From assembly GCA_001244265.2 (NCBI GenBank), contig CDLV01000008.1, positions 868,001 to 932,000 on the forward strand: a stretch of 64,000 nt of DNA. The letters are read 5' to 3'. A model generated the notes under the pieces. The model had not been told where the DNA came from. It ran no database searches and worked only from the letters and a program-made list of their open reading frames with translations. The DNA is from Microbotryum violaceum. Taxonomy: Eukaryota. The stretch's first letter is position 1; each line of letters starts with the position of its first letter. This document shows positions 39,693-61,368 of the stretch, one piece after another. Both the position numbers and the translations under genes were made by a program.

Positions 39693-42600
39693 CTAGCAGA
39701 GGAACCTCTCGTTGAGAGAAGCAACCGAGGAGCACAAATACGACCATGCGACCCGGTTCGAGCGTTTCAGGCCGGCACGACCGAGATGTTGATCGCTATC
39801 ATCGTCGGGCGCGATCTCGCGACGAGCGATGCGTCCATCCTTGTCCGCGAGTAGGTCGGCCTCAAAGGTGTGCAACGTCGCGAAGAAGGGCAAGTTGGGT
39901 TGAATGAGGATGTTGAGTCGACGCGAGCGCGTGAGCAAGTACGCCGAAGCGAGATCGAGCTCGATGTGCTTCATGAGATAAGCGATGACGATCGACGCGC
40001 TGCGCGAGACGCCGACGCGGCAATGGACCAAGACCTTGCCGCCGGTCCAACGCGCTTGGTCAATGAACTCGAGTGCTTGGTCAATGTAAGGACGGATCGA
40101 ATCGATGCCGTCATCGGCGACGTTCTTCATGTCCAGCACGCTGATGTTGCCGAGTCTTTCTTCGAGCCACAGCGAATTCGTGTGCGTCTCGTTGGAACCG
40201 GCGGCTCCAACTGGTGGCGGACGAGGGGGCGTGAGCGCCGATTCGCCCATCGAGACTACGTGGGTGATACCGAGTTCTTTGAGCATCAAGGCGTTATTGG
40301 CATGGTTCAGGTTGCCAAGGTACTGCGGAAGTGACGAGAGGGGTCAGCTTCAAGTCTCAGGACACGGAGATCGCTGCGCGCGCTCTAGGCTGTGTACTCA
40401 CAAGGAAAGGCAGAATCCGGCTAGGAAAGTGGCCATCGAACATTGGGGCGTAGAACCACGGGCTGTTCGAGGCGTTCGAAGGCCGAGGCTTGGAAGAGAA
40501 CCATTGCTGTGCCAGTTCGGCGTCGGGTGAAGGGGACCGAGGTCTCATTTCGGCGTCGTCACAACTGTTACTGCTGCTGGAAGAGAGCGCTCCTCGCACG
40601 GCCTGCACGAATTTGGAGGTCTTGGTTGGTGTGCTCGAGTTGGAGACGTAGCCCGAGTCACTGCGCTCCATGCCGGTGCTGGTGGGCTCCTCTCCAACGC
40701 CATTGATCGACGATACCGAAGAGGACCTTGACGGCGCCATGGGAGAGGCCGTCAATTGCCACGACATACTCTTGCGCGTCGCAAGCCACTCCTGCTCCTC
40801 TCGGCACAAAACATCGATGACGCGGCGCTCGATCATCGGCAAGAGCTGGTAGTCCTGGGGATAGATGTAGAAGCTGCGCTGGGCCGACTCTTGGAGGTAA
40901 AGGTAAGCCTCGGCGGCGTTGCGACCCCCACCGGCGACCATGACGTAGGTCACTGCCAGAAGCGAGCTTTCGGTGTAGCCATCGCCGCAGTGCAGCAAAA
41001 TCCTTCGAGGCAAGCGCGACGTGTCATCGGGGCAAGCTTGGCGGCGCATCCAAACCGCGAGCTCCACGAGCGCGTTGACAAATTGCGTCTGCGCTCGCTT
41101 CGTTGTGTGGCTGGACGAGTTGGGCGCGACGCAGTTGGTGCTCGTTGAGGGGCATTCCAAGTGCACGAGGTCGTGAACGTGGGGTCGGAGGATCTTGACG
41201 CGCTCCTCACCGAGTTGAGAAGCCGTTGTATCGATCTCGTCGTCGAGCAACTGGCGGACCTCTTCGTAGGCCTGACCCTGCGCTTCGAGATCGTTGAGAT
41301 TGCGGTCCGCGTCGCGCAAGATTGCGGCGGAGACGTTGGCGGCTTGGTCGTGCGCTTCGATACAAATCGAGAAGGAGAGTGGGTTGCCGTCGTCAAGCAA
41401 AGATGAGCTCGAGTCGTTCGATAAGGCCTGGGCGTACGGTGCTTGGGGAACATCCTGAGCATTGCCGAGCCAGATGTTGTGCAAAATCTCGCTCGCCTGG
41501 GTGAGGACGCGCATCTCCTCTCGCTCGCGCTCGAAGAAGTTGAGCTTGTTCCTCACAAAGCCGTTCGAGTCGATGCCGACGATTGTCGGGTAACGTTGCT
41601 CAAATGTGACGAAGGGATCGACAATGATGTAGACGTTGTACTGAATCGCACCGGCGGCGTCCCCGCCTCGACGACGACGTTCACGCTCCTGAGCCTCGGC
41701 GACTCGCGCCGCCGCATCGATGACGTGGGACTCGGCGCCATTCTCTCCATAGACGACGATATCACTGATGGTCGCGTACTTGGCCGCTTGCAGCGCAAAA
41801 TGGCGCAGGTTGACGGTCTGGAAAGTTTCCGGTGCGGGCAGAGCGAACGAGTTTGTCGATGCAGAGATAATCGAAGATAGGGGCAAGGAAGAGACGAGGC
41901 GGCAGGTGGGCGTTGCAGAGTGGAGCGAGGGCGAAGGAGAGGCCGATGCCGAGGACGAGGACGAGTCTTCGCTCGAGGTAGAGGAGACCGAGGATGAAGA
42001 CGAGTGCGTCGACGAGTTGGTGGACCACGAGGCGAAAGAAGAAATGAGCCCTCGTCGGCGAGAAGGTACTGAAGTCGAGCACGGCGTCACTGGCGGGGGG
42101 CAGTGGACGGTCGTCAATCCGCGGTAGCTATCCGGAGGCGAAGAGGAAAAATGCGAAATCAGCGAGTGGACCACAAGGTCTGGGCGAACAGGATCATGGG
42201 TTGGATCTATCCGATGCTACAGCTGCGAGAGTCTGGTGGTGACAGTCATGGGGCATGCGTCGCGCGTCGGTCCCCTTTCATCAAATTGGAGGCGAAGGCG
42301 CCGCGACTCAGGCACGGCGCGTCGGACAAGTCGAACGATTTAACGCCGGCGAGTTACGCGCAGCGAGCGCGGGTAGGAGGGACGCGCGCGCAACCGCCGG
42401 CGTCGGCGACGACGACGGACCACAAAGCACCTCGAAAGGGAAAAGCCATGTCGAGAAGAAAACTTCAAGTGCTCCGAGCGAACGAAATCAAAGAGAGAAG
42501 GGACTGACCTGGGTGCTCGAGCGGCGGTGCCCTTGGCGAAGCCAAAATACTGACTCGCTGCCGAGTGGGGGATATCAGCGCTGCCGTGCGACCAAGGGAA

Positions 42601-43044
42601 CAGCACGTCCTCGGGCAGACGTTGCTTCGAGTAGGTCGCTTGCAGGCGTGCATAATCATCAGCAGTGAGGACTCGGATTGGAGGGACGTTGTTGCGAGTC
42701 GACAGAAGGGGAAAGTGGGTAGCATCGATTTGTAGGCCATGGCGAGGGGTGACGACGGGTGCGACGTTGGCACCGCCGGTAGAGTTGGACGACGACGACG
42801 AAGACGACTTTGCGGCGCGCAGCGATGAGTGTCGGATCGGCGACGAGGCAGGTCGAGTAGTCATCTTGACGTTTGAAGGGGGATGAGCACTCTTGGTCGG
42901 GGCGTTCGTGCCGTTCTCAATCAGGGTCTCGATATGAGGGAAGAGCGGGGTGGCCAGGATCGCGTCGCGCTCCTCTTGAGCCGCAGCCGCAGCGTGACCA
43001 GGCTTGGACCTCTGTGCGACCGGGTGCAACTTGACTTCGACCAT
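39693..43044 (-). CDS. PPS1: Dual-specificity protein phosphatase, Pps1-like
   Basis: LFPWSHG, degenerate HCGDGYTESS domain, GHFPSRILPFLYLGNL and catalytic VHCRVGVSRS. Confidence 0.82.
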
Positions 43045-44052
43045 ACTAGCTGATGGGGGAAGAGGACGGATGAACGGATCGAAAAGTTGGTCGGTGAGAG
43101 AGATCAAGTCCGAGATGAGACCCGGGGGTGAACCGGGGAAGGGGAGGTGGAGACGCGGAAGAAAAGAGAGCGTGAAAGCGCAGAGGAGACCTTTCAACGA
43201 GCACGAACCGCCGCTCAACTGACGCGAGGCTGCCACACCGGGCGCGTGTCGCAGGCTTTTTGGCCGAGGCCCGAGAGCACGGTTCGTCTTCCTGCGCCAC
43301 TAAAATGCGCTTTTAAAATACACCGCTTGGCTGATGGCATGATGGCATGCTAGCACGGACTTACTCAAAATTCAACCACATACCTCTCTAGTCCACCACC
43401 ACCAACATGATAAGACTCTTGTATTTTGTGACGATCTTCACTTCCAAAGTCGACGAGCTCGGTGATTTTGTAATCTCGCCAAGACGACCCCTGAAAAAAC
43501 AGAGGTCATGTTCCCCGCCTGCTTGTCTCACAATGCTTCTCCTATTTGTCTCGTATATCCTACACCAACAGCTTCATCATCACACTCTCTTCGACCTACC
43601 CTGGCAACCTCTTGTAATCCTCTGACTCCCACAAAGAAAGTGTCTCACATTGCCAGTGACCGTGATCGTCACGTCGAGCCAGCTCGCGCAACCCCACACA
43701 GAGCAGGATCTGGCGTCTGACGCGTCCATAAGTGATCGGACGCGCTCGTCGTCGCGTGTCTCACAAAAGCTTTTTAGGCTCAATCAACCAATGCAACGGT
43801 CCTTCGCGGAACCTGTCGGGGCCGTGGTACCCGGTCGGTCGATGTGACATCGAGAATCTCAAACTGCCAAGATTGCCCAGTAGTGCCCGCCACACCCTCT
43901 GCCCCGATATGTTTGATCGACAACGGTGACGCCGCCCGCAAAGAAGTAAATCACGTGCACAGACTTTCTTCACTTCACGACGCCACTGAGCGCGATCGCG
44001 ATAAGAGTCATCTCACTACAATCGCAGTGACACAAGAGCTAGCGCCCATCCC

Positions 44053-47000
44053 TCAAGGATGCTTCCCTTGATTCTGATACATCTCCGCGAGCTGCTCGGT
44101 CGTCGTGGCCTGTTCGATCGATTTGTCCTCGCGTACCTTGATGAACCGTGGGAAGCGCACCGACACTCCTGAGAGGCGGTAGATCGAATGCGCGTTAGCC
44201 TGCCTCGCCGGAGCACGAGTGTCCTCAAGCTCTGATCATATGTCAAAGAGCCTTACCTCGTTCACCCAGGATGTGTTGAGCAGCGGGGTAGACCGGTGAT
44301 AGGGTGAAACTGCGCAGGAAAAAAAAAAGGGTCAGTAACGCTGCTACGCCACCGAGCACTTCCATCCTCCACCTCAAGGTACTCACTCGGCCCCTCGCAT
44401 CTCCCATACTTCATTGGGTTTGAACCAAATAGAAGGGCGCAAACCAGCGGCCTCTATCTCGGAAGGTTTCGAGCGGCTCGTGAAGTCCCCGTCCGGTGCA
44501 TACTTGACGTTTAGACCTAGTAGGAGAATCCCAATTAGTCCCTTCAGTAGCCATCTTATCGCGCGCGAGATAAGGCCTGATGCGAATGCTCACCTTTATA
44601 AAAGTCATCTGTGAACCCCGACATGCATTTACACACAGCTTGGATCTGCCCCGACTCGGAATCATACACACCAAGGAGGATCGGACTCCACCACTGCGCT
44701 TTCCGGCCGTTGCCATGCCAAGCGCCTATGGGTATGAGGTCAAGCGAATCCCCCAGGTCATTCAAGTAGTCCTTCTTGACCTTGAGCCATGAATCGGCTC
44801 GCTTGTCGGGCTCGTAAGTCGCAGGTAGAATCTTTCGTCGACGACCTTGGTCTTTGACCGGCGAGTGGGTAGAGCTCGCTTTGGTTGTCGATAGTGGAGT
44901 CGAGGGCGGCGGTGAGTCGAGCTCACTCTTCTCTCTAGCTTCTCCTTCATCCGAATAGTCCCCAAGATCTGGGTCCACTTCATTTTCCGGGTCTTCTTCC
45001 AGCTCGGCTTCGTCCAACAGCTGCAGTGTAGGAGAGCGATCAGCAGGCCTGCGTACCCTCATCAAACCGGCCAAGGCCTACCTTGATCATTATACCTTCG
45101 GCCCTCATTTTCAACGCTTCTTGGAAGAAAGCTTGGACTTTGACGTTGTCGTTGTCCATACAGGAGGGGACGAGCTCCCACTTGGCGTAACGTGGATCGG
45201 TGGGCCGAAGCGGGGAGAAGCGCTCGTACAGGAGATGGCGACGTTGGCGGAACGACTTATTGAGGAGGGACTGTGGGTTCGATCAAGGTGTCCGCATGAG
45301 ATCAGGAGGACGCTTCACGTGACCTCGATTCGACCCACTTCTCCATTGAGAAACATCAAGTCGAAGCCTAAGAAATGGTTGAAGGCAAGTCAGCGCTCAT
45401 TTCGTTCAAAGGTCCTTAAACTCGTGAGCTCGGATACGCACCAAAGATACCGACCCGGACCTTGATGTCGCCCATCTGCACGTCCTTTTTGGATCGATAT
45501 GAAAGTGCCTGGAACGTCTTGAACTCTGAAGTCTGTGGATCAATAGCGACAATCTCACAATCGAGAATGAAATTCTCCAGAGGAAGTCCACGCGCCGTCT
45601 CTCGGTAGACGAGCGAAGCAAGCGTTGGAGCGATGTCGGGGTACTTGTCGCTCATGTCCTCAAGATGACGACTGAAGCATCGAATCCAGATGCGCGTCTG
45701 GTCCGCGTTAGCTTCGGGTGGATCGTACCATTTTCCTCGACTGTTGTCACTCAGCCCGCTTGGTTCGACCGTAGAGACGTGGATCTGACCACGCTGCCCA
45801 TCGAGTTTGGCTTCGCTGACGAACGGTCGCGATCCCAATCGGCTGTAGATCTCGGACAGGCCGCGGGTGATGGACCCGAGCATCGGTTCCAGAGGCGTTC
45901 CAACGGCTATGGGAACGCGTAGTTCTAGCAGTGCAATACCATGATCGAGCAACGCCGCCACAACATGCCCATAATCGGGATGCCTCGCCCACACCTTCCT
46001 CACGATGGCCTCGGCTCGATCGAGTCGTTCCTCCAGCAAGCGCTCCTTGTCGCCCTTGATCTTTTCTTTCGTCTTGCCCGATCCTTTCTTCGCATCGACC
46101 TCATCTGTCACGTCTTGGCGCTCTCTCTTGAAGATGTAGAAATCGTCCGATACTGATGGTTCCCCCCCTTTGCGCGAAAGACAAAACGCCTTGGCGAGCG
46201 CAGTGATGATGGTCAACCGCACGGCGCCGATCCTCAAGTTGCCGACGAGTGTTCGGATGAGGTATCGCACTTCTTCGCCCTGGGCCGAGACGAGAAGTCT
46301 CTTCACGATCGAAGTCTTCCTCTCGAGCGATCCGGATCCTTTCAGCCGAGCGATAATGTGGAGCTGCGCAAACAACGAATGACAGACCAGTGGTGGAGGC
46401 GGGACGAGTAGTCGGACCGATTTTTTCATTTCGTATGCCACATCGCCTGTTCGCGAAACATGACTTATCAGATTCAAAGGCAAGGCATGGGTGAGGAGCT
46501 CTCCTTTAAGTCACCAGGATCTCCGAGCTTGTTGAGCTGTCGTAAAGCTTGAGGAGTCAAGCCCGACACCTCCTTGAACGCCTTGCTAAGCACCTGGGGG
46601 CCGACCCCCAGCTCCAGATCACGCTCATGGGCGGGTCCAATTCGATTTGAGCACAGGTAGACGACATTCTCGAGCGACTCTGGGTCGAGCTCGATGGCGA
46701 CCCGGAACAGATTGGTCAAGACGCGGGAGATGAAGAGGCGAGATTTGGTGGTCGAGATAAGAGCGAACGCGGCGGCCAAGTACGAGTAGGGCATCCTGCC
46801 CGCGGGCCAGGATGATGTGTCGACATGAGAGGAGGGTTCAAACGTAAAAAGGGAGGTGTCGAGTGGGAGAAGTGCGCCGGTCGACCCGGTGGAAGCTCCT
46901 AACAGGGTCTTTGACGACGAGGCTAAAGCTTTGCCGGGCGACGCAAGAAACGACAACGCGTCCGGTTTGGAGGTCAATGAAGTGACTGAGTTTTTATCTT

Positions 47001-47628
47001 CATCTTTGACTTTGCCCAGGGCCACGGCTGACTTTTTGGTCGGCGATTGGAAGACAGGCGCGAGCGGGGTCGAGAGTGACTTCGCAGACATGTTAGAGGT
47101 TGAGGCTGGCGCATACCCAGTGATGACGATGTCGTCGTCGTCCTCTCCTTCTTCGCCATCATCGTCGTCTTCGTCAACCAAACTGATCGTTTCGGTCTCG
47201 CTCTTGGCCGAGACGGTCCTCTGACGAGGCAGGCGCGACGATGACGGTTCCCCGGCCGTGCTCAATGTGGAGCTCACTCCACTGGTGTCGCCCATCCGAG
47301 TGGCGTTGCCGACACCAGCTGCTGCTGCTGCTGCTGCTCTGAAAGCCTTGCCAAAGTGGCGCTCATGGAACTTGACGGTATCCAATGAAGTGCCTTCACT
47401 CCGCGCCAGCTTCCTCGCGAGCTCTGCATCGGCTTGCTCCTGCTGAACCCGTCGCTGCCGTTCGAGATCGAGCGTGACGTCGTCATTGTCGTCATCGTTG
47501 TCGACGTCGTCGGATGCCAGGTCCAGGGACAGAGGTGCAGCCACACAAGGAGAAGGGGTGCCGAACTTGAGCTTCTTCTGTATCGGTGCAGCGCCCGTCG
47601 TGGCACCGCTATCCGTACACTTGGGCAT
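44053..47628 (-). CDS. ATP-dependent DNA ligase, LIG1/Cdc9 family (probably the second paralog)
   Basis: [12 protein letters not shown] (KxDG), [32 protein letters not shown] and LRFPRF. Confidence 0.88.
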
Positions 47629-47867
47629 CGAGACAGTCGATGGTCGGAAAGAAATATGAAGCCAACGCTCGATCGCGTGAAGTCAAAATGGCCGCTCGGG
47701 CGATCGGCGCCTCCGCCTTACCGGCTGGCTGACGGGGACTTGGGTGGTCCGTGCGAGCTCATCGGGACGGCAGGCCAGGCGGGAGCATCTTCCCCCTCAT
47801 CTCCGCCAGTGCCCATCTCGCTTCATCGAGCACCTCGGAAACAACACCCGCCCGACCTACTCTGACC

Positions 47868-49832
47868 ATGGCACCGGCAACGATTCAAGAATTGACCAAG
47901 CTGCTCGCTGACGACACCAAGGTGCAGGTGTGCGCCGTCGACGCGGACGGCGTGTTGAGGGGCAAGATCATGGCCAAGGACAAGTTCCTCTCCGCCGCGG
48001 TCGATGGTTTCGGTTTCTGCTCCGTCGTCATGGGCTGGGACATGCATGACCAGGCCTACGCCAAGGAGCTCAAGATCTCCAACCTCGCCAACGGGTACCG
48101 CGATCTGATCGCTCGCATCGACCTCGACACTTATCGCCGTACCCCGACCACGCCTTCGTTGCCCTTCTTCCTCGTTACCTTCATCGAACCGACCACGAAT
48201 GAGACCCTTTGTGCGTGCCCTCGAGGCCTGTTGCAACGCATCAACGATCAGATTGAAGCCGAGGGCTATTCCGCCTATGCCGGTGCAGAGGTCGGTCATC
48301 CCTCGTCATCTGCGGTCGGTCGGTCGGTCACGAGACCGGCGCCGTTATCGTCCCACGAACGAGTTTCAAAACTGACCGATAGCAAACCTGCTCGGCTCGT
48401 CCGCAACTGTTTCTTGCATCGATCTCAACCCCTGCCAGTACGAGTACTTCCAATTCAGAGAAACACCCGTAGTAAGTAGACCAAACCGGATCTTACCAGA
48501 TTTTTGAACTGTCCCCATCGCTGACGTCCCACCCACCTTCACCCCACGTCCCTCATCCCTTTCCCCCACGCGCGCGCAGTCGGTCGCAGCAAAGGACTTC
48601 AAGAACCTCGAACCCCTGACCTGCGGCATGCATGGCTACTCGATGCTCCGCCCCGAACTCAACAGCGAGTACTTCCATGACATCTGGGACAACTGCGCCA
48701 AGTTTGGCATTCCCATCGAAGGTGAACTTCCTCAGGGCTGCTGTTGATGGTTTTGGCGAATTCTTCTCACTGATGTCCACTATAACTACTCAAAGGGCAC
48801 CACACCGAGACAGGTAGGTGCCGCTACAGCGCAGATTGGTCCAGAAAAGAATACGAATATTGAGACTTTTCATCTTAAAGGTCCCGGTGTATTCGAGTCG
48901 GCCTTGGCGTACCAACCTGCGCTGCGCATGGCCGACAACGCGACTCTCTTCAAATGGGTTGCCAAGACGACCGGTCTCAAGTACGGCATCATGCCCACCT
49001 TCATGGCCAAGCCGTACGCTGACCAACCGGGATGCTCCGGTCATGTCCACATCTCGTTGCGTGACAAGTCGGGCAAGAACGTCTTTGCTGTCGAAGAGAG
49101 CGAGCTCAAGGACGGGAGGGCGGATGCCAAGTTTGAGGATACGAAGCGTATCAGCAAGACGGCTGAGCATTTCTTGGCCGGCGTGCTTTTGGGTTTACCC
49201 GATATTGTGAGTCGAGTGCTCCAAGGGTTATAAAGGAGGAAAGACACCCGCTAAAATACTGGTCTCTCCGCCCATAGATGCCCCTCCTCGTCCCAACCGT
49301 GAACGGCTACAAGCGCCTCGTCGAATCCTTCTGGGCCCCTACGCGCGTCATGTACGCCTACGAGAACCGCATCGCCTCCGTGCGCATCATTTCCCCTCCT
49401 CTCGCTTCCCCTTCGGCAACGCGTCTCGAGATCCGCGTCCCAGGAGCGGATATGAACCCTCACTTGACCTTCTCCGCCATCCTTGCGCTAGGTCTGCACG
49501 GTATCAGGGAGAAACTCGAATTGAGGATTCCTCCCATCAATACGAGTAAAGGTGGGGCAGCGTCGATTCAGAGCTTCGCGAGGTTGCCGAGCAGTTTGGC
49601 GAGTGCGACGGAGAATATGAAGGCGACGGATTCGATGGCGAGGAAGGTGTTGGGGGATGACTTTGTGGACCATTTTGCTGGGACGAGGGTGAGTTGGTCT
49701 TGAATTAAACGGCTGTTGTGATAAGAGCTCTACTGACCCATATCTGAGTTGTCCTTGTAGGAAAACGAGACGGATCTGTTCAACGCCACTGTGACGGATT
49801 GGGAGCTGAAGCGCTACTTCGAGTTGGCTTAG
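47868..49832 (+). CDS. Glutamine synthetase-like (gamma-glutamylamide synthetase type) protein
   Basis: DADGVLRGK, GWDMHD, HTETGPGVFE, PTFMAKP, GCSGHVHISL, YENRIASVR and RLEIRVPGAD. Confidence 0.88.
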
Positions 49833-50001
49833 TTCTCTTCGTGTAACCTTATCACCGATGGCGCTTAAATACCATGTGCGCAAAAATCGATTTCCTTGAA
49901 GGACAAAAAGCTGTATTACATCACTCTCCGAGAAGAATTCAATGCCCCCCCCCCCATGATCACGGAAACCACATTCCATCACCGTGTATGACCCAAACCG
50001 C

Positions 50002-51757
50002 TCAGTAGTCACCAATCATCATCTTGATGATCATTTTGCCATCTGAATGGAAAATTAACCAGGTGTGGTGTCAGCGTCACCACCCCGTAGAACTACTCTT
50101 AACCACGGTCCCCAGACTAACCCTTATCAACGCCATTGATGAGTTCCTCGAACGCCTGATTCACAGCGCTCAACTTGTGTCTTGTCGTCACAAGCTTCTC
50201 CACACCGGGTAACCGACCCGCACCGAACAACGCAAGCGCATCGGGGTAAGTATTGACGTAACGGAAGACGCCGAGGAGATCGACTTCTCGGAAGGCGGCG
50301 GCGGAAACGGGGAGGGTCGCGTTGGGGGTTCCCATGCCGATGTAGACGACTTTGCCTCCCGGTCGGGCAGCCTGGAACGGTCGAAATAATGTCAATGGTC
50401 AGCGCTGCGCTTTTCATGAATCACGACTTGCTAGATTCTCACGTGAACGGCGGCTTGCATGCACGTCTCGACACCGGTGCATTCGAGCACAACATCGAAT
50501 CCATCCGAATCAGGGACCGAGTACTTTGCCAACACATCATCAGCCATCGTCTTGGCTTGTTCCAAAGACTGCGTCGAGTTTTCCGGTCGAGCCGTTCGAG
50601 GCAAAATGTGACCGGCGTTAGCGAATCCTTCTTGAACGGAGAAGTTAACGCGGGCTTCGTTGATGTCGACGACGACAAGGTGGGTCGCACCGTGGGCCTT
50701 TGCGACGGCGAGAGCAAGGATACCGACGGCTCCAGCACCGAGGACGAGAACGCTCTGGCCGGCGGAGATGTTGGCCCTTCGGGAGGCGTGAAGAACCACT
50801 GAAAGAGGCTCAACCAAGGCAGCGGCCTCGTAAGAGCACGCGTCGGGGAGCTTGTGGAGGTTCCTCGCGGGATGGTTGAGAAAAGTCTGAAGGGATCCGT
50901 CGGCGTGAGGGTAGACCTTAGCGGAAGAATTAAAGCGCACTTTGGAGAGAAGATATGCGGACGAAGTCAGCTCGGTCTTCGATATTCAGTGCACATGTTT
51001 AGTCACAAGACTCACTCCTACCGCAGAGGTTGTATCGTCCACTCTTGCAAAGCCTGCATTGACCGCAGTAAACACCGGCCTCGATCGCCACTCGGTCACC
51101 GACAGCCACCGACGTTACGCCCTCACCGACAGCGGTCTAAAAGGAGTTTGGACAGGATTCAAGAACTGTAAATAATCCTTCTAAGTCTCTTACTGTCGCG
51201 AAAATCTGAAACCAACTTACGACGACACCAGCAGACTCGTGACCGAGCGCCATGGGGTGACTGGATGAGTTGATCAGGCCGTCGAACCGTGTCAGCGAAA
51301 GTCCGAAACGTGGGGGGGCTTGGAAGGCTCTGCCGAAGGTAGTTCCAGTGACGCACCGAAGCTTGAAGTCACCGACGGCACCATGAATGTAGTAGTGCAT
51401 ATCTGTACAAGAGTGCAGAGAAAGGACCCGATGAGAGCGCCAAGAATTGAGGCTCAGCTTCCGGGCGAGATCCTCAACCACATTTGAACCATTGCCCTAG
51501 CCATCTATGCTGACCTGATCCACAGAGACCGGTGGCCTTGACGGCGACCTGTGCTTCTCCAGCAACGGGCGCAACGACCTCACGCTTGGTCTGTTAGACA
51601 ACGATATGCGGAGTGAGCGCTTCGGTTCCGGAAGTGGCCCCTCGGCGACGTGGGGCAGATCGACCGGGCGAAAGCAGTCGAACGAGACCAAACGTACAAG
51701 GCGCAGATCCTTAGGGCCATGCAAGACAGCAGCGTAATTGACTGGTGCGGAAGACAT
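50002..51757 (-). CDS. Zn-dependent polyol dehydrogenase (sorbitol/xylitol dehydrogenase family)
   Basis: GLCGS|DMHYY, LGHESAG, EPLSV, GAGAVG, ECTGVE and GVFRY. Confidence 0.9.
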
Positions 51758-52018
51758 GGCTGACTTCGTATGGATTCGCGAAGCGGTGATATGGTGGGAA
51801 AGGGCAGGAGAGCGAGAGCGAGAGCGACGAGAGGTCCGGCGCGCGGGGGTGGTGCATTAAGTTCCGCGAGGTGGAAAAGCGGGCCGCTTTTGCCGCCGCG
51901 GGGTGAGACATCACGTGACTCTCAGCTACCGGCGGATTCGGAGTGGGAGTCGAGTGCGTTGCGCCGGGGATTCGCAGAATGGTTTACAACACGTGGTCTA
52001 GAATACAAGTAAAGCCGA

Positions 52019-52848
52019 TCATTCAAATCGGGCGCCTCGCATCAAAATCAACTCGGTCCCATTCTGCACCAACTGCGAGAGCCTTTCCGATGTCGGCAGA
52101 CACGTGTCATCGTTTATCGAGCTGGCCAGCGTGAGCCGCTTCTTGCCATCGGTCGTAGTATTGTTGAAATTCGCCACATCGAAAATCCGTGCCATTTGAT
52201 CGATTGCTTTGCCGCCGGTGCTTTCCTTGCCCAGCCAGACTTCCTTAGTCGATGCGACTGTTCGCTCCTCGCCTTCGCAGAACCGCACGGTGAGGTAGAG
52301 CCTATCCTCCATCTTGAGTCGCTTGGCGGTGGCATCGATGGGCTGAGCCCGTTGCTTAAGTTTCATCAGTGCGATGACAGGTGATAAGGGCTTGGTATGT
52401 GCCGACTTGACAGCAGCTGGTAACTTCGTCGGTGGCGCCGTTAACATGGAGGAGACCTGACGAAGCGCACAGCCACGAATAATCAGTAGTCCATCGGGTG
52501 TCTCTTTCAATCATCGCTCGAGGGTTGAATGTGACTCGCCCCAAAGTTGCGCTCAATTGTCTCCTTAGCTAGTGTCGACCGGGCGTGTTGGTCTTGCTTC
52601 ATCTGATCGCGTTCAAACGCGTGACGTTGCGGAGCCGGCAGAAGATCCTCAAACTTGTCCGCGAAACGTTTTCCGTCCTGCACGTTGTCCGTAGTTGCCC
52701 TGGCGATGTCTGAGCACCCATGCTGGGCAGGTGGGGCATGCGGCCCGCAGAAGACGAGGGTGCAGCCTGCGCACCGGATAGGGAGGAGGTCGAGCGTGCG
52801 ACATGCCTCGAGGGAGCAATGCACTTCGATGGCGTATGAGTCGGGCAT
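52019..52848 (-). CDS. AN1-type zinc finger protein (ZFAND1/Cuz1-like) with C-terminal ubiquitin-like region
   Basis: HCSLEACRTLDLLPIRCAGCTLVFCGPH...HGC; IALMKLKQRA...EDRLYL; GKAIDQMA. Confidence 0.8.
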
Positions 52849-54789
52849 GCTGCCCCGTGGTGCATCGGAGGGTTTCCAAAGTTTGGCCTTTGGCAGCGAT
52901 GTGAGCCGACGCGGATGATGTTGCGAAGCACACTACTGCGACGGTGCGGATATGGGGGCGAAATGGGCGTGCCGGACCTCTGCACATCGCCGTAAGTGCC
53001 TGCACTTCGGTACACTACCGCTTTGTATGCTTTCGACGACCAGACTTGGTTCCGTCCCGCCGTTACTCTTGGCAGGTGTTCTCTGACTCGACAGATTTCG
53101 CTATAGCTCGGTTACAAATAGGGGCTACACGGGCAACCCTCTGAACCGTACGGAATCCATGTGGCTATAATCCGCAACGGGCCATAATCCTAACCACCTG
53201 AAAGCTCGAGGTTTTCCTGCTGGATTACCTGATGCAAGATATTTCAACATCAACTTGTCAGAAATGGCCAGGGATGACAATGTATGGGGCAGAACCGCTG
53301 ACCATGCGCGAATTGAAGGGTCGAAGCGCACTCGCGAGTCCATAATTGTACCATCTTCACCCCACATGTCATATTCTGGATACATTGCCATCCCTGGTAA
53401 TTTTTGGCAAGTTGATGTTAAAATATCTTGCATCGCATAGGGAATCTAGCCGGAAAACATCGAACTTTTGCAGATGATCACCGTTGCGGATATTCCGTGC
53501 GGCTGAGGGTTGCCCGTGTAATCCATGTTATCGGGGCGGCAATCGGGGCAAACCTTATGCGAGAGAATTGGAGAATCGTCACTCGGGGCACGTCTTAGCC
53601 GAACCTCGTCGAGATCGAGATCAGGGTCAGGATCAGGACTCGGATCAGGCTCAGATCAGAGCCTGCCGATCGAGGAGGCATCTCAAGAAGTACGGTCCGT
53701 GTATTTGATCTAGATCCAGGATCGTATCTTCACTTGATCGATCGAACAGGGTAAGCGCTCCGAGACCTTCGACCGCGAAGTCCGTCTCGATCCAGCCGCG
53801 GACTCGGCAGGGCGACGGGCTGGCGACTAACATTTCCGCACTACTTGCTAGTGCTTCAACACCGATAAGACAGTTATCCTTCCTCGAGTGAGACATCTGT
53901 GATCCCCGTAGATGACATCACTCGATCGTTGAAGTCCATACCTCCGTGCGCCAGCGGGCAGCCACGGGCGTCCACCGCCGTCCCAATCCCGCCACTCCCC
54001 AAGTCCTGAAAAGCACTTGCATGGCGGGTAAGTCCCTGTTGAGGACGGTTGACGACATCTCCAAGACTTTCATTCGCCCCAGGGCTATGGCGCTTCAGTG
54101 CTGCATGTCTTGTCCATGCAGACGCTCTACGACGGAGCAGCAATTCATACGGTCTGACAAGCCTTTTCCGGCGGTGTCACGGGTAGTCGATCGGGGGTGG
54201 CGCCCCTGTCGCCCCACCGGGGCAGGGGCGCGCAACCCGGATCCGAAGCGCAAGCGGCACGTGCGATCGATCTTAGCGAGAGCAACTTCAGGCCGGCTAT
54301 TCAAGTGCGCCTAATCTCAGTCCTTTCTCGCCAGCCCTCTTTTTATTCAGACGATTCCCGCCCTCTACCGATCGTGTCGGCTGTTCCACATCACGGTTCC
54401 AAAGACAGGCAGGCAGTCTCAGAGCAGTCAATTGTTATCCACGTCGTCGACTCGACCGGGACCAGAATTGCGGGCCCGTAAAAGTCCAAACATCTGTCCA
54501 TCAAACGGATCACATGATTAATTTGAGCCCTCCAGAGTCCACAGTACCCGGCGAAATTCGGGATCGTGATGAACTCCACGCTCGAGGTTCGGAAATCCTG
54601 AGCGTCGGGTCGAACGGGCCTCGTCCAAGTGTTGGGCTGGTACCTGCTCGCATAACGATATACCCCCGAAAAAAATTAACTCAATTTCAAATGCTTTCGA
54701 CTACCTAAAGTGGACGTCCCCTGAATTCCAGTTGCTCATTTTCCCTTCTTCCTCCACTTGCAACCTGCGAAACATCGAAATTCGTGAAG

Positions 54790-56602
54790 ATGTTCCACTC
54801 ACAAAAAGTACTCGCTCAAACTTCTCGTCGACTTCTTCACACCCAGGTCGGACAAGATCCACTGCCCCGCATCGTAGGAGTCGTCGGCACCACTGGTGTG
54901 GGCAAGACCAAGCTTGGGGTCGAGCTTGCGAGGGCTGTGCCCTCCCTAGCTGCGCACCCTGGTCCTGGACGTTCCGCCCCTGACTCGCGGCTGGCCCCCA
55001 TTGCGGAGGTTATCAATTCCGACTCGATGCAATTCTACAAAGGCTTCGACATCATGACGAACAAGACGACTCCTCGAGAAATGCAAGGCGTTAAGCACCA
55101 CCTTTTCAACATTCTCGAACCCGACCAGAGTTATTCGGTCCAAGATTTCGAATCAGACGGGCTTAAATTGGTGAATCAAAACTGAATGAGCCTCAAGGAT
55201 CTTAGTAACGGTCTCACTCATTCAATGTCTCACCGCGAGCTTAGATCCGAGACCTGTGGCAGCGGTCGGCCGTCCCCATTTTTGTGGGGGGATCCGACTA
55301 CTTCCTTAGACATCTGATTTTTGGCCACGGATCCACTGGCAAGCCGGTGTCTTCGTGGGGCAGCATGGGGCAGCGTCAGGAGCAGGCGCCGAGGCAAGTC
55401 GAACCGAAGGAAACTAACTCATCCGGTACGCACCGGTCACCTCCCTAGTGCTCGAGCTTACGTCATGTGCAAACGTGATGTCTTGATTCCACAGATACAC
55501 TACCCTCATTTTCTGGCCTTACGCTGAGACCAGCGTGCTGAACAAGAACCTGGACGATCGTGTCGACAAGATGGTCGAGGTCAGTCGAGTCTCACTAAGC
55601 GATGACAGGGGCCATGGCGACCACAGCGAGCGGTCAGCTGACTGACACCGGCCATATGTTCTCACGGCTTCATGGCTCATTATATGTCATAGCTTGGCCT
55701 TCTGGAGGAGGTTGAGCAGATGTGGGCCTTGCAAGGCCGAAACCTCGAGACCGCCGATTGGTCGAAAGGGGTCTTTCAGTCGATCGGTTCGCCACATCTC
55801 ACTCGTGACCCGTGATTACTCTAGATTGGTAGTGAGCTGAACTTATAAAACCCTTATCGACCAAATAGGCTACAAGCAACTGCTTCCCTATATCTCAAGT
55901 CGCCACGGCTCTTCGATCTTGCCTCAGCTCCTACTGGAAGCCGGCATCGAGCGCACCAAGACCGCAACCCGTCGGTACGCGCAACTTCAGATCGATCGGC
56001 TCAAGAACGCGCTCTTGCCGACGGTCAAAGGGCTTCAAGATCCTGCCAAAGTGACTGTGGTGATGCTTGATGCGACGGGTGAGTCTGAGCCCATGACAAA
56101 TCCACAGTGCTGCGGGGCCAAGACAATGGTCGTCCTCCACATTGGACATAGGCGGCAGCTACTGACGGAACCGTGGTCGGATCCCTCTTCCACGTGGCTA
56201 GACCTCACCCGGTGGGAGGAAAACGTTCGACAACCGGCTCAAGCATACCTGCGTGGTGAGTCCTCGTTGGAGCGGACCACACGTGCTCGAACTCACGGAT
56301 CTCTCTCTCTTTCCGTCCCGAGCCGAAGCTAACGCTTGATCTCTTGTTCTCAGCGTTCCTGGCGAACGAGCCACTCCCCGATCCGACTTCTCTATCTCCT
56401 CTCGCCGAGCGCCATCTTTCTGGGATCCCGTTGCAGTGAGTACACTTTCGCCCAGTCGGTCCCTCGAGAGCTTTTTACTCATGCCAACCGAGATTGGTGA
56501 ATCGGCCACAGTCAACCTGGAAGTGAGCGCATGGTCGACCCCAGTGCTTCGGTCGCTGACCTGCTTGCGTTTGATCACGCGACGCGTAACTTCAAGCAAT
56601 GA
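54790..56602 (+). CDS. Short isopentenyltransferase paralog lacking the tRNA-binding insertion and zinc finger; stop at 56439 or, with one more intron, 56602
   Basis: GTTGVGKT, NSDSMQFYKG, TNK, VGGSDYF, LDDRVDKM, QSIGYKQ and TRRYAQLQ. Intron positions match the neighbouring MOD5, with one GC-AG intron at 55394-55494. Confidence 0.8.
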
Positions 56603-57093
56603 TCGCGACTTATGGGTGGAAAGGGTGCGGGGACAACAGTCATTACACAATGCCTTGCCCCGAGCCACCAATGTTTGTAGGTCTGCGGACTAAGATGTGT
56701 GTGCGTCTGTGTTTGTTGAGAAGACCTTTCGGCGTACGTGGATCATTTATTGCGGCTGGATTCCGGCAATGAGATGAGCTTCATTCAGTTTTCGTTGACG
56801 TGACAAGCAAGGCGGCGAAAGTGGAGGGAGAGAAGCACCAAGCAAGCGGTCATATAGACGTTGAGCCTGTGTGGCCGGCATCTGGTCCATTCACTTTCAG
56901 TGCCAGGGGAGCGACTCTGCAAATATGATTTCTAAAGCCGGGATCAACCTACGCACACGACGGTGATCAGTCGAAGCCGCCTCTAGTACTTGGATCCTTG
57001 CCCAGCTCCACCGTGTGGTCCTCACTCCAACGCCACCAACGATGCGGTGAACCACGCTTTCACGACTTTCAAGTACTGGAACTCGCACACCGC

Positions 57094-59213
57094 ATGATCT
57101 CTAGAGTAGCTCGATCCGGAACTCTGCAGCTCAGATCACGTGCTTCGTCCGTCGCCCCGACGCAGCGCGTCCGGCAGACCGTTCTGCGCACGATGAGCAC
57201 GCTGCCTGTACAGCGCCCCCATGTCGTCGCCGTCGTAGGAACAACAGGTGTAGGCAAGACCAAGCTCGGAGTCGAACTGGCTCAAGCTGTCGCGTCCATG
57301 GCTCTTTCGTCGTCGTCGAACTCGGGAGCTGAAGTGATCAACTCGGACTCGATGCAAGTGTACAAAGGGCTTGATCTCATCACCAATAAAGCAACCGTGG
57401 AGGAGATGCAAGGTATCAAGCATCACTTGATGGCCTTTCTTGAACCGGGTCAAGAATATAGCATCAATGAATTCCAGGCGGATGCGCTTCGTTTGGTCGG
57501 TCCCTTCCGTCGATACAGACGTTGGAAGGATGACACTGACCTATACAGCGGAGGGATTCGCACAGATCGATGATATGCGAAATCGGGATACACTACCCAT
57601 TCTCGTTGGAGGCACCACGTATTATCTCCAGCACCTTGTCTTCCCGAACCAGCTCGTTTCGGATACCCCGGCCATTTCAGTCCCAAGGACGACTCCCACC
57701 GAACCCCTACCTATCTCAGCAACGCACCACTTCCCTCCCAAACTAGTCGAACATATCCATGCGTTGCCACACGAACTACTGCAGTTATTCCTCGCCCTCC
57801 CATGCCTACCACAAACCTCGACCCCGGATTCGTTCCCTCCGAATTTCCCTCTTGGGCTCGTCCCCGAACCTTATCGATCCCCATCGGACTTTGCTCCAGC
57901 TCTCTACGACCTCTTGGACCGGCTCGATTCGCGTAGTGCAGAACGATGGCATTGGAGGGATATTCGGAAAGTCCGGCGAGCGCTCGAGATTGTTTGGGAG
58001 GGAAGGCAATGGGATGATGTCATGCAGGAACAGAATCAAAAGGGACGAGGACAGGCAAGGTCAGGGATTGCTCTCAAAACGCTATCAGGAAATCTACCAA
58101 GGAATGAGAGCTGATACACTTGTTTTCCTTGAGGCTAGGTTCCCGACTTTGATCTTTTGGCCTTATGCTGAGCCCGAGTTGCTTTCGAAACGACTGGACG
58201 AGCGGGTCGATCGCATGCTTCAAGTGAGGCAACGCTCCACCCCACTCAGGCAATGTACGTGTACTAATACAGTCGTTCGGTACAGTTGGGTCTCTTGGAA
58301 GAGATCGAGCAACTGTGGGCTCTTGCACACCGGAAAGGAGGCGAGGGTTCCGACGAAACCGATTTCTCTAAAGGGGTCTATCAAGCAATCGGTGAGCAGC
58401 CGAGCTGTACCGGCGCCGAGCTAGACTCAGCGCCGTGCAGAATCTGAACCCTCTCGCTCCCCACAGGCTATAAAGAATTTTCGCCCTACCTCGCCTCCAA
58501 GAATGACTCTTCCATCGATTCAAAATCCCTCTTCGATGCAGCTGTAGAAAGGATGAAGATCTCGACGCGCCAATATGCGAAGAAACAAGTCAAATGGATC
58601 AAAAGCAAGTTGTTGCCCGCGATCAAGGAGTTGGAGACCCATGCGGTGACGATCGTTTTGCTTGATGTGACAGGTGAGATTCAGTCGTGGCAAAGACTTT
58701 GGCGACCGTGCCGCGGCGCTGATTCGTGATAGGTGAACAGATTTGGAGAAATGGGAGGAAAACGTTCATAAACCCGCCATCGAGTATCTACGAGGTCAGT
58801 AGAAATGGTTAAATATGTTCTACTCTCGATCACCATCTAATCTTGTGCTATTGAAATTGTACAGCTTTCCTCAATGACGAGCCCATCACCGACCCGGCCC
58901 TACTATCTCCCGTCGCTCAAGAACATCTCTCCGTCAGCAATACAGGGTCAGGACACCTCCTCTAACAAGCCACTACCCATAATCACGTCCTCTGATGATC
59001 CCTCATTCTTCCAACAGCTCCCCCGCCCGTCCAAAACGAGCTTGTCCGATATGCACCGACGATCCCTCTCGCCCTTTCTTCGTTGAGTACCATCTCTGGG
59101 ATTCTCACTCTCGCACCAAAACGCACAGACGACGATTGCGGGAAGTCGGAACACGTGGTCGAAGACCGCCTCAGCGGGAAGAGCGCGAAGAACGGGAAGA
59201 ACGTACAAAATGA
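57094..59213 (+). CDS. MOD5: tRNA dimethylallyltransferase (tRNA-IPT), full length
   Basis: GTTGVGKT, DSMQVYKGLD, VGGTTYY, WHWRDIRKVRRALE, QAIGYKEF, TRQYAKKQ and a C-terminal zinc finger CPIC...WDSHSRTKTH. Confidence 0.92.
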
Positions 59214-59381
59214 AGGGAGTAATATTATGCGGTACACAATTGCAATCAGACGCAGCGCTACAGACAGAAGAAGCATCTGGTAATGAAAGGAGATGAGACG
59301 AGACGCCGACGAGCGGCGCGTCGGATAGTTGAAGAACCAAAATAAAATAAAAATGCACGACGTCTACTATGCTAATCCAAG

Positions 59382-60965
59382 CTAGGCGATAGGTTCGACG
59401 GCTCTAGCTACTGCGGATTGGGAAGCAAGTGGGGCGTCGACGAAAGGCGCGGACTTGATAGGCTCTAGCACCTCCCCCAACTCGGTCGGCTCCGTCGAAG
59501 CAGGTGCAAGCGTCCCGTCCACGCTTTGTGGTGTCGAAGACACGGCCAACTTGTCGACACCATTACTGAGGCCCTTGATCGACGCGTCGTCCTTCATCGT
59601 CGTCGTGGCACTAACTGAGCTTTCATCGACTTCCACCTTGCTCTCGACGTCTTTCTCTTCTGCCCCCTCAGGGACCTGAGCTCCCCGAATAATCAATTCA
59701 CTAATCCCGCACAACCCTTTCCCGTGCTTCCTCCATCGGTCCAAGTTCGCCGCCCGCCGTTCTTCGCACATTTTGGTCCAGGCGGGGAAGAACGCCTCGT
59801 GGTTGTATTCGAGGTTGACTTCACCTCCGAACATGGATTGCAATTGAGAGGCGGGGATGAGATCCGTCGCGTCGGCCTCGCTGAGGAATCGGATCTTGTC
59901 CTTGGTTCGGGGATCGACGAAGGGTTTGACGAGCGTGTAGAATGGCCAGAAGAAGCTGGGGTGGCGCGTGGATTCGGGATATCGAGATTAGTCCATGCAA
60001 CTTCGACTCTGAAAATCGCCAAGACTCCTCACCCTGGTACATCGACACAGATAGCTCGCCCCAATCGCTCGCAGTAGTAGGTCTGCAAGATCTTGAGCAC
60101 CTCCTTGGCCGTCCCCGGAGAGGTCGGTGGTGTCTTGACGTTGCGACTGGCGCCAAAGTCGATGCACAAGCACAACATCTCGGTCGGGGGGTTCGTTGCG
60201 GGCGCGAGGTCGAGCGTGCGTTCGAGACACCAGACAACGAACTCGATTTGGCGATGCGAGGTTTTAGTATTTTGTCGATACGGGTGCATGTACAAGATGG
60301 GTCTTGAAGCAAAGTCGTAGCCAAACTAGAGGAAGGAAGAAGCCAGAGTCAGACGCCGCTTCAAGATAAAATCTGGATACCACATCGTGGGTGGCACCCC
60401 AAAAAACGACACGAAGCATCGAACCAACACTCACCGAAAGCTCCTTGCCCGTCTCTCCTTCATGCGACACCTGCTCAGCGGTCATGGAATCGATGCCGAA
60501 TTCTCGTCGCCAAACCAATATTTCCTCGGCGCGTTTGATCGCGGCGGGATAATCCCACTTGACGGCCCTCGCAACGCGTTGGAACTGTTCCCACGACCAA
60601 TAGCATTTTTCCACATCCGAAAGCGGGACCGATTCGTTCGCGGACGAGGTCGAACTTGCTGAACTTGAAGTGGAAGTGGAAGTGGAAGTGGAACTTTGCT
60701 TTTCTCCTCCTCCGCCAAAGGATCCGAACCATCCACGCGAGGGAGGTCTCCAAGCTTTGAGCGTGGTCGGAAGCCCAAAGCCGGGTTCATTGAAGCGCGC
60801 GATAAGCTTGTGGACGAACTCGGTCTGTTCCGATGTGAGCTTGTGAGGTGTGGGTGGCTTGGCATCTGGGTGAGGGTGGGCGATGGGAAGAATCGGTCCA
60901 TCGGAAGGAGGGGATCCGGGAGCCGCCGAGTCGGACGGCTGAGATGGGGCTGACTCGGTCATCAT
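59382..60965 (-). CDS. CRAL-TRIO (Sec14-like) lipid transfer protein, Pdr16/17-like
   Basis: RAVKWD...WRREFG, EGETGKE, LQTYYCERLGRA and FGGEVNLEYNHEAF. Confidence 0.88.
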
Positions 60966-61368
60966 CGCTGGGAGTCAGTTATCGGCAAGCCGGCACGGAA
61001 AGAGAGCGGAGCGCGAGCGCGAGCGCGGGTGGGTGTGGCAGGTACTAGTAGGAAGATCACGGAAATGTAAAGAAAACAGGAGAGGGAAGCTTGAGACGTA
61101 GAATCGACTGGAAGCTGAGACGGAAGGTAGCAGGCAGCGAAACAAGTCGAGTCGATGCCGAGCCTCCCCCCGATTGACGACAACGACGTGATGCATCGCG
61201 AGATGACGGCTGCGAGATCGCGAGCCGACGCCAACCTTCGCAGCGGCCGAGCCGAGGGGCATCGTCGCCTCGTCATATTGCTTGGTAATCCGCCGGTCTG
61301 GGGCTCGGGCACGGCGCGCGGGCAGTGCCGGCAGTGAGCCGTCTCCGACACTGAGGGCCGTAGAGAGC

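Follow-up and report, generated by a model that had tools for sequence, protein, structure and literature searches.

The cytokinin enzymes of Claviceps purpurea and Fusarium are fusions of an isopentenyltransferase (IPT) to a LOG domain. These IPT-LOG enzymes are the only de novo fungal cytokinin route that we found cited (in PMC5521058, from Hinsch et al. 2015), and they form the ascomycete exception to the general view set out in parts of PMC7316887 and PMC5521058, in which fungi have a single tRNA-IPT and derive their cytokinins from tRNA turnover; the other fungi examined in PMC5521058 carry one tRNA-IPT each. Outside plants, adenylate IPTs are described in PMC7316887 as known from few organisms, and the same source presents Dictyostelium IptA as a case of de novo cytokinin synthesis in a non-plant eukaryote, where it controls sporulation and spore dormancy. 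Chu et al. (2010, PMC2836551) take the adenylate IPTs (AIPTs) of plants to be a divergent offshoot of the tRNA-IPTs, and their account of the hop enzyme (HlAIPT, PDB 3A8T) describes a core-only protein from which the additional domain found in tRNA-IPTs is absent, the P-loop and the catalytic Asp, Arg and Thr being conserved in all IPTs. Here we describe two tandem, co-oriented IPT paralogues, genes A (MVLG_06598) and B (MVLG_06597), on the plus strand of a 64,000-nucleotide stretch of Microbotryum lychnidis-dioicae DNA (positions 868,001 to 932,000 of contig CDLV01000008.1, assembly GCA_001244265.2, deposited as Microbotryum violaceum; hereafter the window, to which all positions refer). Gene A very probably encodes a functional Mod5 paralogue, confined to this genus and neofunctionalised, for which canonical tRNA binding is hardly possible, and it is a candidate cytokinin synthase.

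Gene models were obtained by reading open reading frames (ORFs) and reconstructing splice sites over positions 54000-60500 (Table 1). As a first-pass annotation of this DNA had proposed, the downstream gene is a complete tRNA-IPT: the 541-aa product of B matches the Pfam family IPPT (PF01715) with an E-value of 1.5e-61, aligns with yeast Mod5 over its full length including a CxxC...HxxxxxH zinc finger, and carries the P-loop, DSMQ, TNK, GGTTYY, an insertion segment with WHWRDIRKVRRALE, LDERV and YAKKQVKW. The product of A matches the same family (1e-43; 150.2 bits, cut-off 23.6), the match falling in two stretches around a missing insertion domain, and it is 48% identical to that of B (177/371 columns). 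All seven intron positions are common to the two genes, with identical phases (0, 2, 0, 1, 1, 1, 2), which bears out the shared intron positions claimed for the pair. Gene A reads open across its exons and, as had been reported, keeps GTTGVGKT, DSMQ, TNK and LDDRV; the departures from B noted at the same time are likewise all present. Between ...HLIF and intron 2, A has 24 aa (GHGSTGKPVSSWGSMGQRQEQAPR) in place of the approximately 139 aa that in B include WHWRDIRKVRRALE; the zinc finger is gone; GGSDYF stands for GGTTYY of B, and YAQLQIDR for YAKKQVKW.

The consequences for tRNA binding were assessed by residue-by-residue comparison with characterised IPTs. The roles of residues were drawn from parts of Chu et al. 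2010 (PMC2836551), Yarham et al. 2014 (PMC4046958) and two reviews (PMC8234997, and PMC9917222 for the Mod5 domains); for E. coli MiaA the chain index is the literature numbering, and the Mod5 chain index plus 12 reproduces Asp46, Ser47, Tyr114, Gln256 and Trp299. A is a direct descendant of the Mod5/TRIT1/MiaA enzymes (EC 2.5.1.75; PDB 3EPH, 2ZM5/3FOZ), with the same Pfam family, core fold and catalytic residues, but unlike them it has neither insertion domain nor zinc finger, and shows Gln/Glu for Lys294, Arg for Trp299 and GGS for GGT. The insertion domain, a five-helix unit that clamps the anticodon stem-loop, is replaced by the 24-aa linker, which is predicted to be disordered, and Mod5 chain positions 109-181 have no counterpart in A. 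The tRNA-binding residues Arg167 and Arg170 of MiaA lie within this deleted segment, and their equivalents in B are found in WHWRDIRKVRRALE. At the other end of the protein, the zinc-finger Cys/Cys/His columns (87-90% conserved in the family) are Val, Ser and Asp in A, and its 30-aa tail contains no Cys/His zinc-finger motif.

Substitutions within the retained core point in the same direction. The position of MiaA Lys280, Mod5 Lys294 and TRIT1 Arg323, assigned in PMC4046958 and PMC8234997 to the tRNA-backbone contact class and not to catalysis, is Gln in three A species and Glu in M. intermedium. The change from Lys to Gln is the position and the change of the TRIT1 Arg323Gln disease mutation, for which PMC4046958 reports activity that was negligible under standard assay conditions and stayed very low when enzyme and RNA concentrations were raised. 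Counting the tRNA-binding residues mapped in MiaA, two of the four are deleted from A and one has changed from Lys to Gln/Glu. In addition, the Arg four residues before the catalytic Arg (MiaA Arg213), present in 98% of 118 other IPTs, is Asn in A, and the Mod5 Trp299 position (96% conserved) is Arg in all A orthologues. Mod5 Tyr114 and Trp299 are described as stacking on A36 (PMC2836551); A keeps the equivalent of the former and has Arg for the latter. The net charge of the helix around YAQLQ is +3 to +4 in A versus +5 to +6 in B. tRNA-type states are retained in A at Lys56 (MiaA) and at Tyr114, Ser47 and Gln256 (Mod5). Taken together, the alignments make the loss of canonical tRNA binding in A a well-supported reading.

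By contrast with these losses, the catalytic apparatus is preserved. The equivalents of MiaA Thr19, Lys23, Thr24, Asp42, Tyr47, His67 and Arg217 are kept in the three aligned A orthologues, as is the invariant Gln whose hop counterpart binds the alpha-phosphate, and GTTGVGKT, DSMQ and LDDRV are found in all three. The worry that the change to YAQLQ might abolish catalysis is weakened: the Lys at issue belongs to the tRNA-backbone contact class, and the motif retains its invariant Gln. On the donor side, A has Ile250, Tyr287 and Thr284, of the type that goes with dimethylallyl diphosphate (DMAPP), and not the Asp/His of Tzs that admit a hydroxylated donor; the predicted product would therefore be of the isopentenyladenine (iP) type and not of the trans-zeatin type. 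The residues that contact adenine in the hop enzyme (Asp and Met of DSMQ, Ile of QSIG) are unchanged in A, which argues for an adenine acceptor.

Splicing was examined by comparing Logan contigs of four public runs (X1, X2, X6 and X10) with positions 54500-59400. Run X6, which is DNA, contains the entire stretch unspliced and identical, and it may be the source of the window; the library kind of the spliced runs is unrecorded or guessed, and the contigs of X10 and X2 omit introns that are retained in X6. In X10, which shows no differences from the window, a 943-nt contig together with a second contig spans all seven introns of A at their exact boundaries (joints 55170/55245, 55393/55495, 55579/55693, 55786/55869, 56078/56202, 56255/56354 and 56435/56512), so that A is transcribed and fully spliced. 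The GC-AG intron that had been picked out from the letters alone (55394-55494) is exactly the one removed in both X10 and X2 contigs (joint 55391 to 55493, a cut that can be shifted by up to 2 bases). Intron 4, with its GTTCGC donor, appears in X10 as a joint from 55785 to 55868 (cut shifted by one base); another potential donor, GTGACC, which lies 18 nt downstream, is not used in that run. The 3' untranslated region of A extends to at least 56779, where the X10 contig ends.

Run X2 comes from a relative that is approximately 5% diverged (30/579 nt differ in pieces of A and 89/1672 in pieces of B). Here introns 1, 2, 3 and 6 of A are present as joints, the two sides of intron 7 are separated by 6 letters, and introns 4 and 5 are matched by loose ends; for B, one contig has all seven introns removed. 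Run X1 yielded unspliced pieces only, with no joints, and is probably low-coverage DNA. Contig depths (X10: 15.8 for A, 3-3.4 for B; X2: 2.6-5.1 for A, 172.8 for B) are unable to rank the two genes. The annotated MVLG_06598 (P0027, 395 aa; strain p1A1 Lamole) is the exact translation obtained when intron 2 begins at a GT donor at 55436, which adds 14 residues to A, and this form of the intron is ruled out by the contig joints. Because the contigs use the GC-AG donor at 55394 and not the annotated GT, the product of A has 381 aa and a linker of exactly 24 aa. For B, the annotated MVLG_06597 (P0029) of the same strain is the exact translation of our model.

The distribution of A-type proteins was examined by searching a library of 5.8 billion proteins with exon 1 of A and with the full A protein. 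This identified two 90%-identity clusters holding four proteins, from M. lychnidis-dioicae, M. silenes-dioicae, M. saponariae and M. intermedium. An A-type gene is thus present in all four annotated Microbotryum genomes, in each case next to the B orthologue by locus tag, and neither of the two protein libraries searched yielded one outside Microbotryum. Among 1.84 billion representatives scanned without a profile there were 12,724 IPT matches, a single one of them A-type (608 bits), the next-best match being an ordinary Mod5 (221 bits, 45% identity). The distance from GGxxYY to the next core strand was taken in 157 sequences (149 other listed representatives, four cluster members and P0001-P0004): it is 33-47 residues in the four A-type proteins, 50 in one Lactarius model and at least 81 in the other 152, with a median of 114. 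No other protein among the best 150 representatives and all the 90%-identity clusters found combines the same losses as A.

A maximum-likelihood tree was built from 49 rows, comprising seven Microbotryum sequences and 42 of the 45 representatives P0030-P0074, with three models longer than 700 aa, P0026 and duplicates left out. The A and B clades (SH-aLRT 100 and 92) are sisters (97), with Rhodotorula taiwanensis outside (99). The duplication was therefore local and later than the split from Sporidiobolales, in agreement with the tandem position and the shared introns; by this phylogeny, A is a tandem duplicate of a Mod5-type gene that arose after the Rhodotorula split and before M. intermedium diverged. 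The stem branch leading to A has 0.86 substitutions per column versus 0.15 for B, while the crown paths from M. lychnidis-dioicae to M. intermedium are 0.204 for A versus 0.22 for B. Over the same 335 columns, identity to M. intermedium is 278 (83%) for A and 268 (80%) for B, and identity to M. saponariae is 356 of 371 columns for both. The coding sequence of A also shows codon periodicity (GC1/2/3 of 0.64/0.43/0.64, introns 0.53). Judged by amino-acid divergence, which was our measure of selection on the two genes, A changed in a burst, has since been held by purifying selection matching that on B in strength, and is not decaying.

An AlphaFold2 model was computed for the annotated 395-aa form of A, whose 14 extra residues fall in the disordered linker, from a 121-sequence alignment. 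The mean predicted local distance difference test score (pLDDT) was 83.5 and the predicted template modelling score 0.83, with 259 residues at or above 90; confidence was low for residues 1-20, most of the linker and the tail. In the linker, 10-residue blocks over 151-190 average 44-73, and residues 171-181 fall below 50. When the model was searched with Foldseek and VIA, only IPTs came out on top, followed by unrelated kinases with Z of at most 12.4. It superposes on Mod5 with Z 34.7 and a root-mean-square deviation (rmsd) of 3.8 Å over 308 residues, on the hop adenylate IPT with Z 30.4 and rmsd 2.2 Å over 263 of the 289 hop residues, on MiaA structures with Z 27-29 and rmsd 2.2-3.6 Å over 235-259 residues, and on Tzs with Z 17.3 and rmsd 3.4-3.5 Å over 212-213 residues. 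As modelled, A has the kinase-like IPT core fold. By language-model features (ESM Atlas), the three clusters nearest to A are plant adenylate IPTs (0.95), whereas the control B lies nearest to basidiomycete and ascomycete tRNA-IPT clusters (0.97).

Among the known systems, hop HlAIPT offers a parallel. Both it and A are core-only, and the earlier statement that plant adenylate IPTs are without the tRNA modules and carry GGS holds for the hop enzyme as given in PMC2836551 (GGSNSF); GGS and the Phe that follows are common to GGSNSF and GGSDYF of A. Neither has Arg at the MiaA Arg213 position (Tyr in hop, Asn in A), and both have a basic residue at the Trp299 position (Lys275 in hop, Arg in A), hop Lys275 being reported to bind ATP's beta and gamma phosphates (PMC2836551). 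The five phosphate-binding residues of hop, Ser129, Ser131, Lys63, Lys220 and Lys275, correspond to Ser, Tyr, Ser, Gln and Arg in A, two of the five being alike in kind. The plant AIPTs (hop; Arabidopsis IPT1, 3-8) are of independent origin, A branching inside fungal Mod5, and the 24-aa linker and the novel 30-aa tail set A apart from them. Since Chu et al. see the plant AIPTs as derived from tRNA-IPTs, the evolutionary route of A would be parallel to theirs. The small, clamp-less, AMP-using enzymes Tzs/Tmr of Agrobacterium (PDB 2ZE5) and IptA of Dictyostelium have the catalytic Asp, Thr and Arg in common with A, but they are far more distant from it (Tzs: Z 17.3, 15% identity), Tzs having Asp171 and Asp221 corresponding to Gln and Arg in A and the donor-side Asp173 and His214 to Ile and Tyr. 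Pfam gave no match of A to the bacterial IPT family PF01745. If A works as an adenylate IPT, this would therefore be a case of convergence, A being sister to Microbotryum Mod5 and PF01745 being unmatched. A differs from the fungal IPT-LOG fusions in that it has no LOG domain (IPPT is its only Pfam family above cut-off) and is a basidiomycete Mod5 derivative.

From these comparisons, we consider A a candidate convergent cytokinin synthase whose acceptor would be a free adenine nucleotide, an assignment that we favour over any other single one and for which the chances seem to us evenly balanced. Duplication was followed by a burst of change, and A lost the insertion domain and zinc finger and had key tRNA contacts neutralised, with the catalytic apparatus and adenine pocket kept. 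In the mechanism proposed, DMAPP would be bound where it is in every IPT, on the channel's P-loop side. The acceptor side, with its clamp domain gone, would take a free adenine nucleotide (AMP, ADP or ATP), whose phosphates would be held with the help of the Arg newly acquired at the Trp299 position. Asp78 would then deprotonate N6, and isopentenyl transfer would yield isopentenyladenine nucleotides, which are cytokinin precursors. Of the adenylate-IPT proposal in the first-pass annotation, the loss of tRNA binding is thus the part that stands on firm ground, whereas prenylation of AMP, ADP or ATP is arrived at indirectly, with one of the four hop-distinguishing positions switched. Of the refuting conditions set out with that proposal, none of those open to computation was borne out.

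Agreement with hop was also quantified in an audit of 71 core columns that are at least 75% conserved among 118 non-A sequences, with the hop states read by eye. A carries 10 changes fixed in the three aligned orthologues, and hop differs at 18 columns; five of the 10 are common to both (Thr to Ser, Tyr to Phe, Gln to Arg/His, Arg to Asn/Tyr and Trp to Arg/Lys), an overlap that is no more than suggestive. Several observations nonetheless weigh against assigning a free nucleotide as the acceptor. Five coincidences compare with approximately 2.5 expected and are not significant (Fisher one-sided p = 0.067). Of the four positions picked out by Chu et al. as distinguishing hop from Mod5, only Trp299 is switched in A, and Tyr114, Ser47 and Gln256 are tRNA-IPT-like. 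The nearness of A to plant AIPTs in the ESM Atlas may reflect only length and architecture. In tRNA-IPTs, DMAPP is described as binding only after tRNA (PMC8234997), and the core of A alone therefore need not be active. The conserved linker and novel tail may indicate a partner or a different substrate. No LOG, P450, CKX or transporter gene was found within 24 kb around the pair, and a full-text literature search returned nothing on cytokinins made by Microbotryum or on MVLG_06598/MVLG_06597; the genome paper (Perlin 2015), where it discusses hormone-like genes, names no IPT.

The alternative that survives best, though we think it unlikely, is that A uses or binds something other than an adenine nucleotide, either as an enzyme with another small acceptor or as a regulator without catalysis that binds DMAPP or a nucleotide and acts, for instance, on B or on isoprenoid flux. 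The stem branch of 0.86 implies extensive remodelling, and it is accompanied by changes beside the acceptor pocket (GYKQL for GxKEF, Gln149Arg) and by a novel conserved tail, with cytokinin pathway genes not found in the 24 kb around the pair. However, all aligned A orthologues share without exception the Asp that acts as general base, the Thr and Tyr of the transition state and the catalytic Arg, which would be superfluous in a mere binder, while the adenine contacts of hop are unchanged.

A further alternative, distinctly improbable in our estimate, is that A still modifies RNA (tRNA or another RNA, perhaps mitochondrial) by means of a different RNA-binding mode or a partner protein. The retained Tyr114, Ser47, Gln256 and MiaA Lys56 states would accord with this, the basic amphipathic N-terminus would fit organelle targeting, and the conserved tail and linker could serve as interaction surfaces. 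Yet both RNA-holding modules are gone; two of the four tRNA-binding residues defined by mutagenesis are deleted and a third is Gln/Glu, a change that nearly abolishes TRIT1 activity; and Trp299 and the 98%-conserved Arg are lost. Moreover B, with its two start codons, presumably serves both compartments, as MOD5 does. That A is instead a functionless duplicate, still open by chance, is highly improbable: two domains are missing, two splice donors are weak (GCAAGT, GTTCGC) and an X2 contig joins exon 3 to exon 5 with a frame shift, but the frame is open in four species including the early-branching M. intermedium, amino-acid divergence is not above that of B, all seven introns are spliced in X10 with X2 joints and loose ends in agreement, and coding periodicity is kept with the catalytic residues invariant.

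Microbotryum is the textbook parasite that castrates its host, causing genetically female Silene flowers to grow stamens. It is a basidiomycete, as had been recognised, although the organism is a dimorphic smut fungus and not simply the yeast that had been supposed. Returning to the reading of A as a cytokinin synthase, it is conceivable, if somewhat short of probable, that anther-smut fungi invented their own enzyme from a stripped Mod5 duplicate, in a further independent origin of adenylate IPTs and the first in Basidiomycota. The product might then serve the reprogramming of host flowers (the anther as a sink, stamens in female Silene) or, as in Dictyostelium, the fungus's own sporulation and spore dormancy. 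With an intact active site and no tRNA-holding modules in a gene that is genus-specific, expressed and under selection, A is therefore a concrete candidate for knockout. Should A prenylate free nucleotides, the path leading from a tRNA-IPT to an adenylate IPT would have been taken again, independently of plants, and the minimal changes would be defined as domain loss plus a few residues such as Trp299 becoming basic; if it does something else, this would be a new activity in a well-studied enzyme family.

The genes around the pair (39693-53100 and 59382-60974, identified by ORF translation) encode a dual-specificity phosphatase, DNA ligase I, a glutamine-synthetase-like protein, a zinc-type alcohol/sorbitol dehydrogenase, an AN1-type zinc-finger protein and a Sec14/CRAL-TRIO protein. 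Judged from these translations, the neighbours appear to form no hormone cluster, and none is tied to cytokinin metabolism. The coordinates of the two genes and their features are collected in Table 1.

Table 1 Positions of genes A and B and of their features in the window.
Feature	Positions	Strand	Details
Gene A, MVLG_06598, truncated IPT paralogue	54790..56602	+	381 aa, 8 exons, stop 56600-56602
Exons of gene A	54790-55170, 55245-55393, 55495-55579, 55693-55786, 55869-56078, 56202-56255, 56354-56435, 56512-56602		
P-loop GTTGVGKT of A, residues 33-40	54886..54909	+	DMAPP diphosphate-binding site; equivalent to MiaA Thr19, Lys23, Thr24
DSMQ of A, residues 78-81	55021..55032	+	Asp is the general base; equivalent to Mod5 Asp46, hop Asp62, MiaA Asp42
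GGSDYF of A, residues 142-147	55287..55304	+	Thr to Ser, second Tyr to Phe; first Tyr (Mod5 Tyr114) kept
24-aa linker of A, GHGSTGKPVSSWGSMGQRQEQAPR	55320..55393	+	Last codon finished by base 55495; in place of the ~139-aa segment of B
Intron 2 of A, GC-AG, donor GCAAGT	55394..55494	+	Bypassed by annotated gene models
NLDDR of A	55547..55561	+	Asn 55547-55549; catalytic Arg 55559-55561, equivalent to Mod5 Arg220, MiaA Arg217, hop Arg184
Intron 4 of A, odd donor GTTCGC	55787..55868	+	Used in X10 contigs
YAQLQIDR of A, long helix (basic in tRNA-IPTs)	55976..55999	+	Gln 55982-55984; Arg 55997-55999
Exon 8 of A, novel 30-aa C-terminal tail	56512..56602	+	In the place of the zinc finger; tail conserved among A orthologues
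Gene B, MVLG_06597, Mod5/TRIT1-type tRNA isopentenyltransferase	57094..59213	+	541 aa, 8 exons
Exons of gene B	57094-57495, 57566-58059, 58139-58223, 58286-58391, 58467-58673, 58741-58794, 58865-58946, 59018-59213		
Insertion-domain segment of B, about residues 161-298	57644..58059	+	Holds WHWRDIRKVRRALE; absent from A
C2H2 zinc finger of B, Cys486 to His513	59043..59126	+	Profile also matches zinc-finger protein 1zu1; absent from A

The N-termini of the two proteins were also compared. In yeast, Mod5 has a two-start arrangement that directs it to mitochondria and cytosol. Gene B has two in-frame ATGs, Met1 and Met34 (57094-57195), separated by a Ser/Arg-rich segment with no acidic residues. 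A single start is found in A, followed by a 26-aa basic amphipathic N-terminus with three basic residues and one acidic, for which the hydrophobic moment (muH) of the helix is 0.66, the same as for the presequence-like N-terminus of B.

At intron 2, the GC donor of A (AG/GCAAGT, 55376-55405, the slash marking the cut) aligns with exonic sequence ...AGGCAAG/GT of B (58040-58070), and A seems to be one G short. Loss of that G would, it seems, have removed the ancestral GT donor, with the splice site now 5 nt further upstream and phase 2 kept. One X2 contig apparently joins exon 3 of A to exon 5 (55579/55869, loose end 55867), skipping the 94-nt exon 4, and represents either a frame-shifting minor isoform or an assembly artefact. 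Where splice sites are non-canonical, all four public models of A seem to be in error: leaving the GC-AG intron unused gives both MVLG_06598 and the model from M. saponariae 14 extra residues, 11 aa are inserted at intron 4 in the M. silenes-dioicae model (406 aa), and the M. intermedium model (363 aa) is missing the core strand YTTLIFWPYAE.

Some other proteins also came up in the searches. Two short models were considered as clamp-less IPTs and rejected, P0063 (Lactarius tabidus, 397 aa), in which GGT, Trp, Arg and the zinc finger are kept, and P0184 (Pisolithus microcarpus, 366 aa), in which GGT, Trp and Arg are kept; because the tRNA-type residues are retained, both probably represent ordinary tRNA-IPTs whose gene models leave out part of the domain. 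Likewise rejected, as a fused tandem pair, was P0030 (1106 aa, Microbotryomycetes sp.), which has one IPPT domain and an EME1/MUS81 C-terminal piece. Finally, P0038 (1248 aa) and P0077 (1080 aa) each carry an IPPT domain C-terminal to a complete leukotriene-A4-hydrolase/peptidase M1 region, and are either fused gene models or a recurrent fusion.

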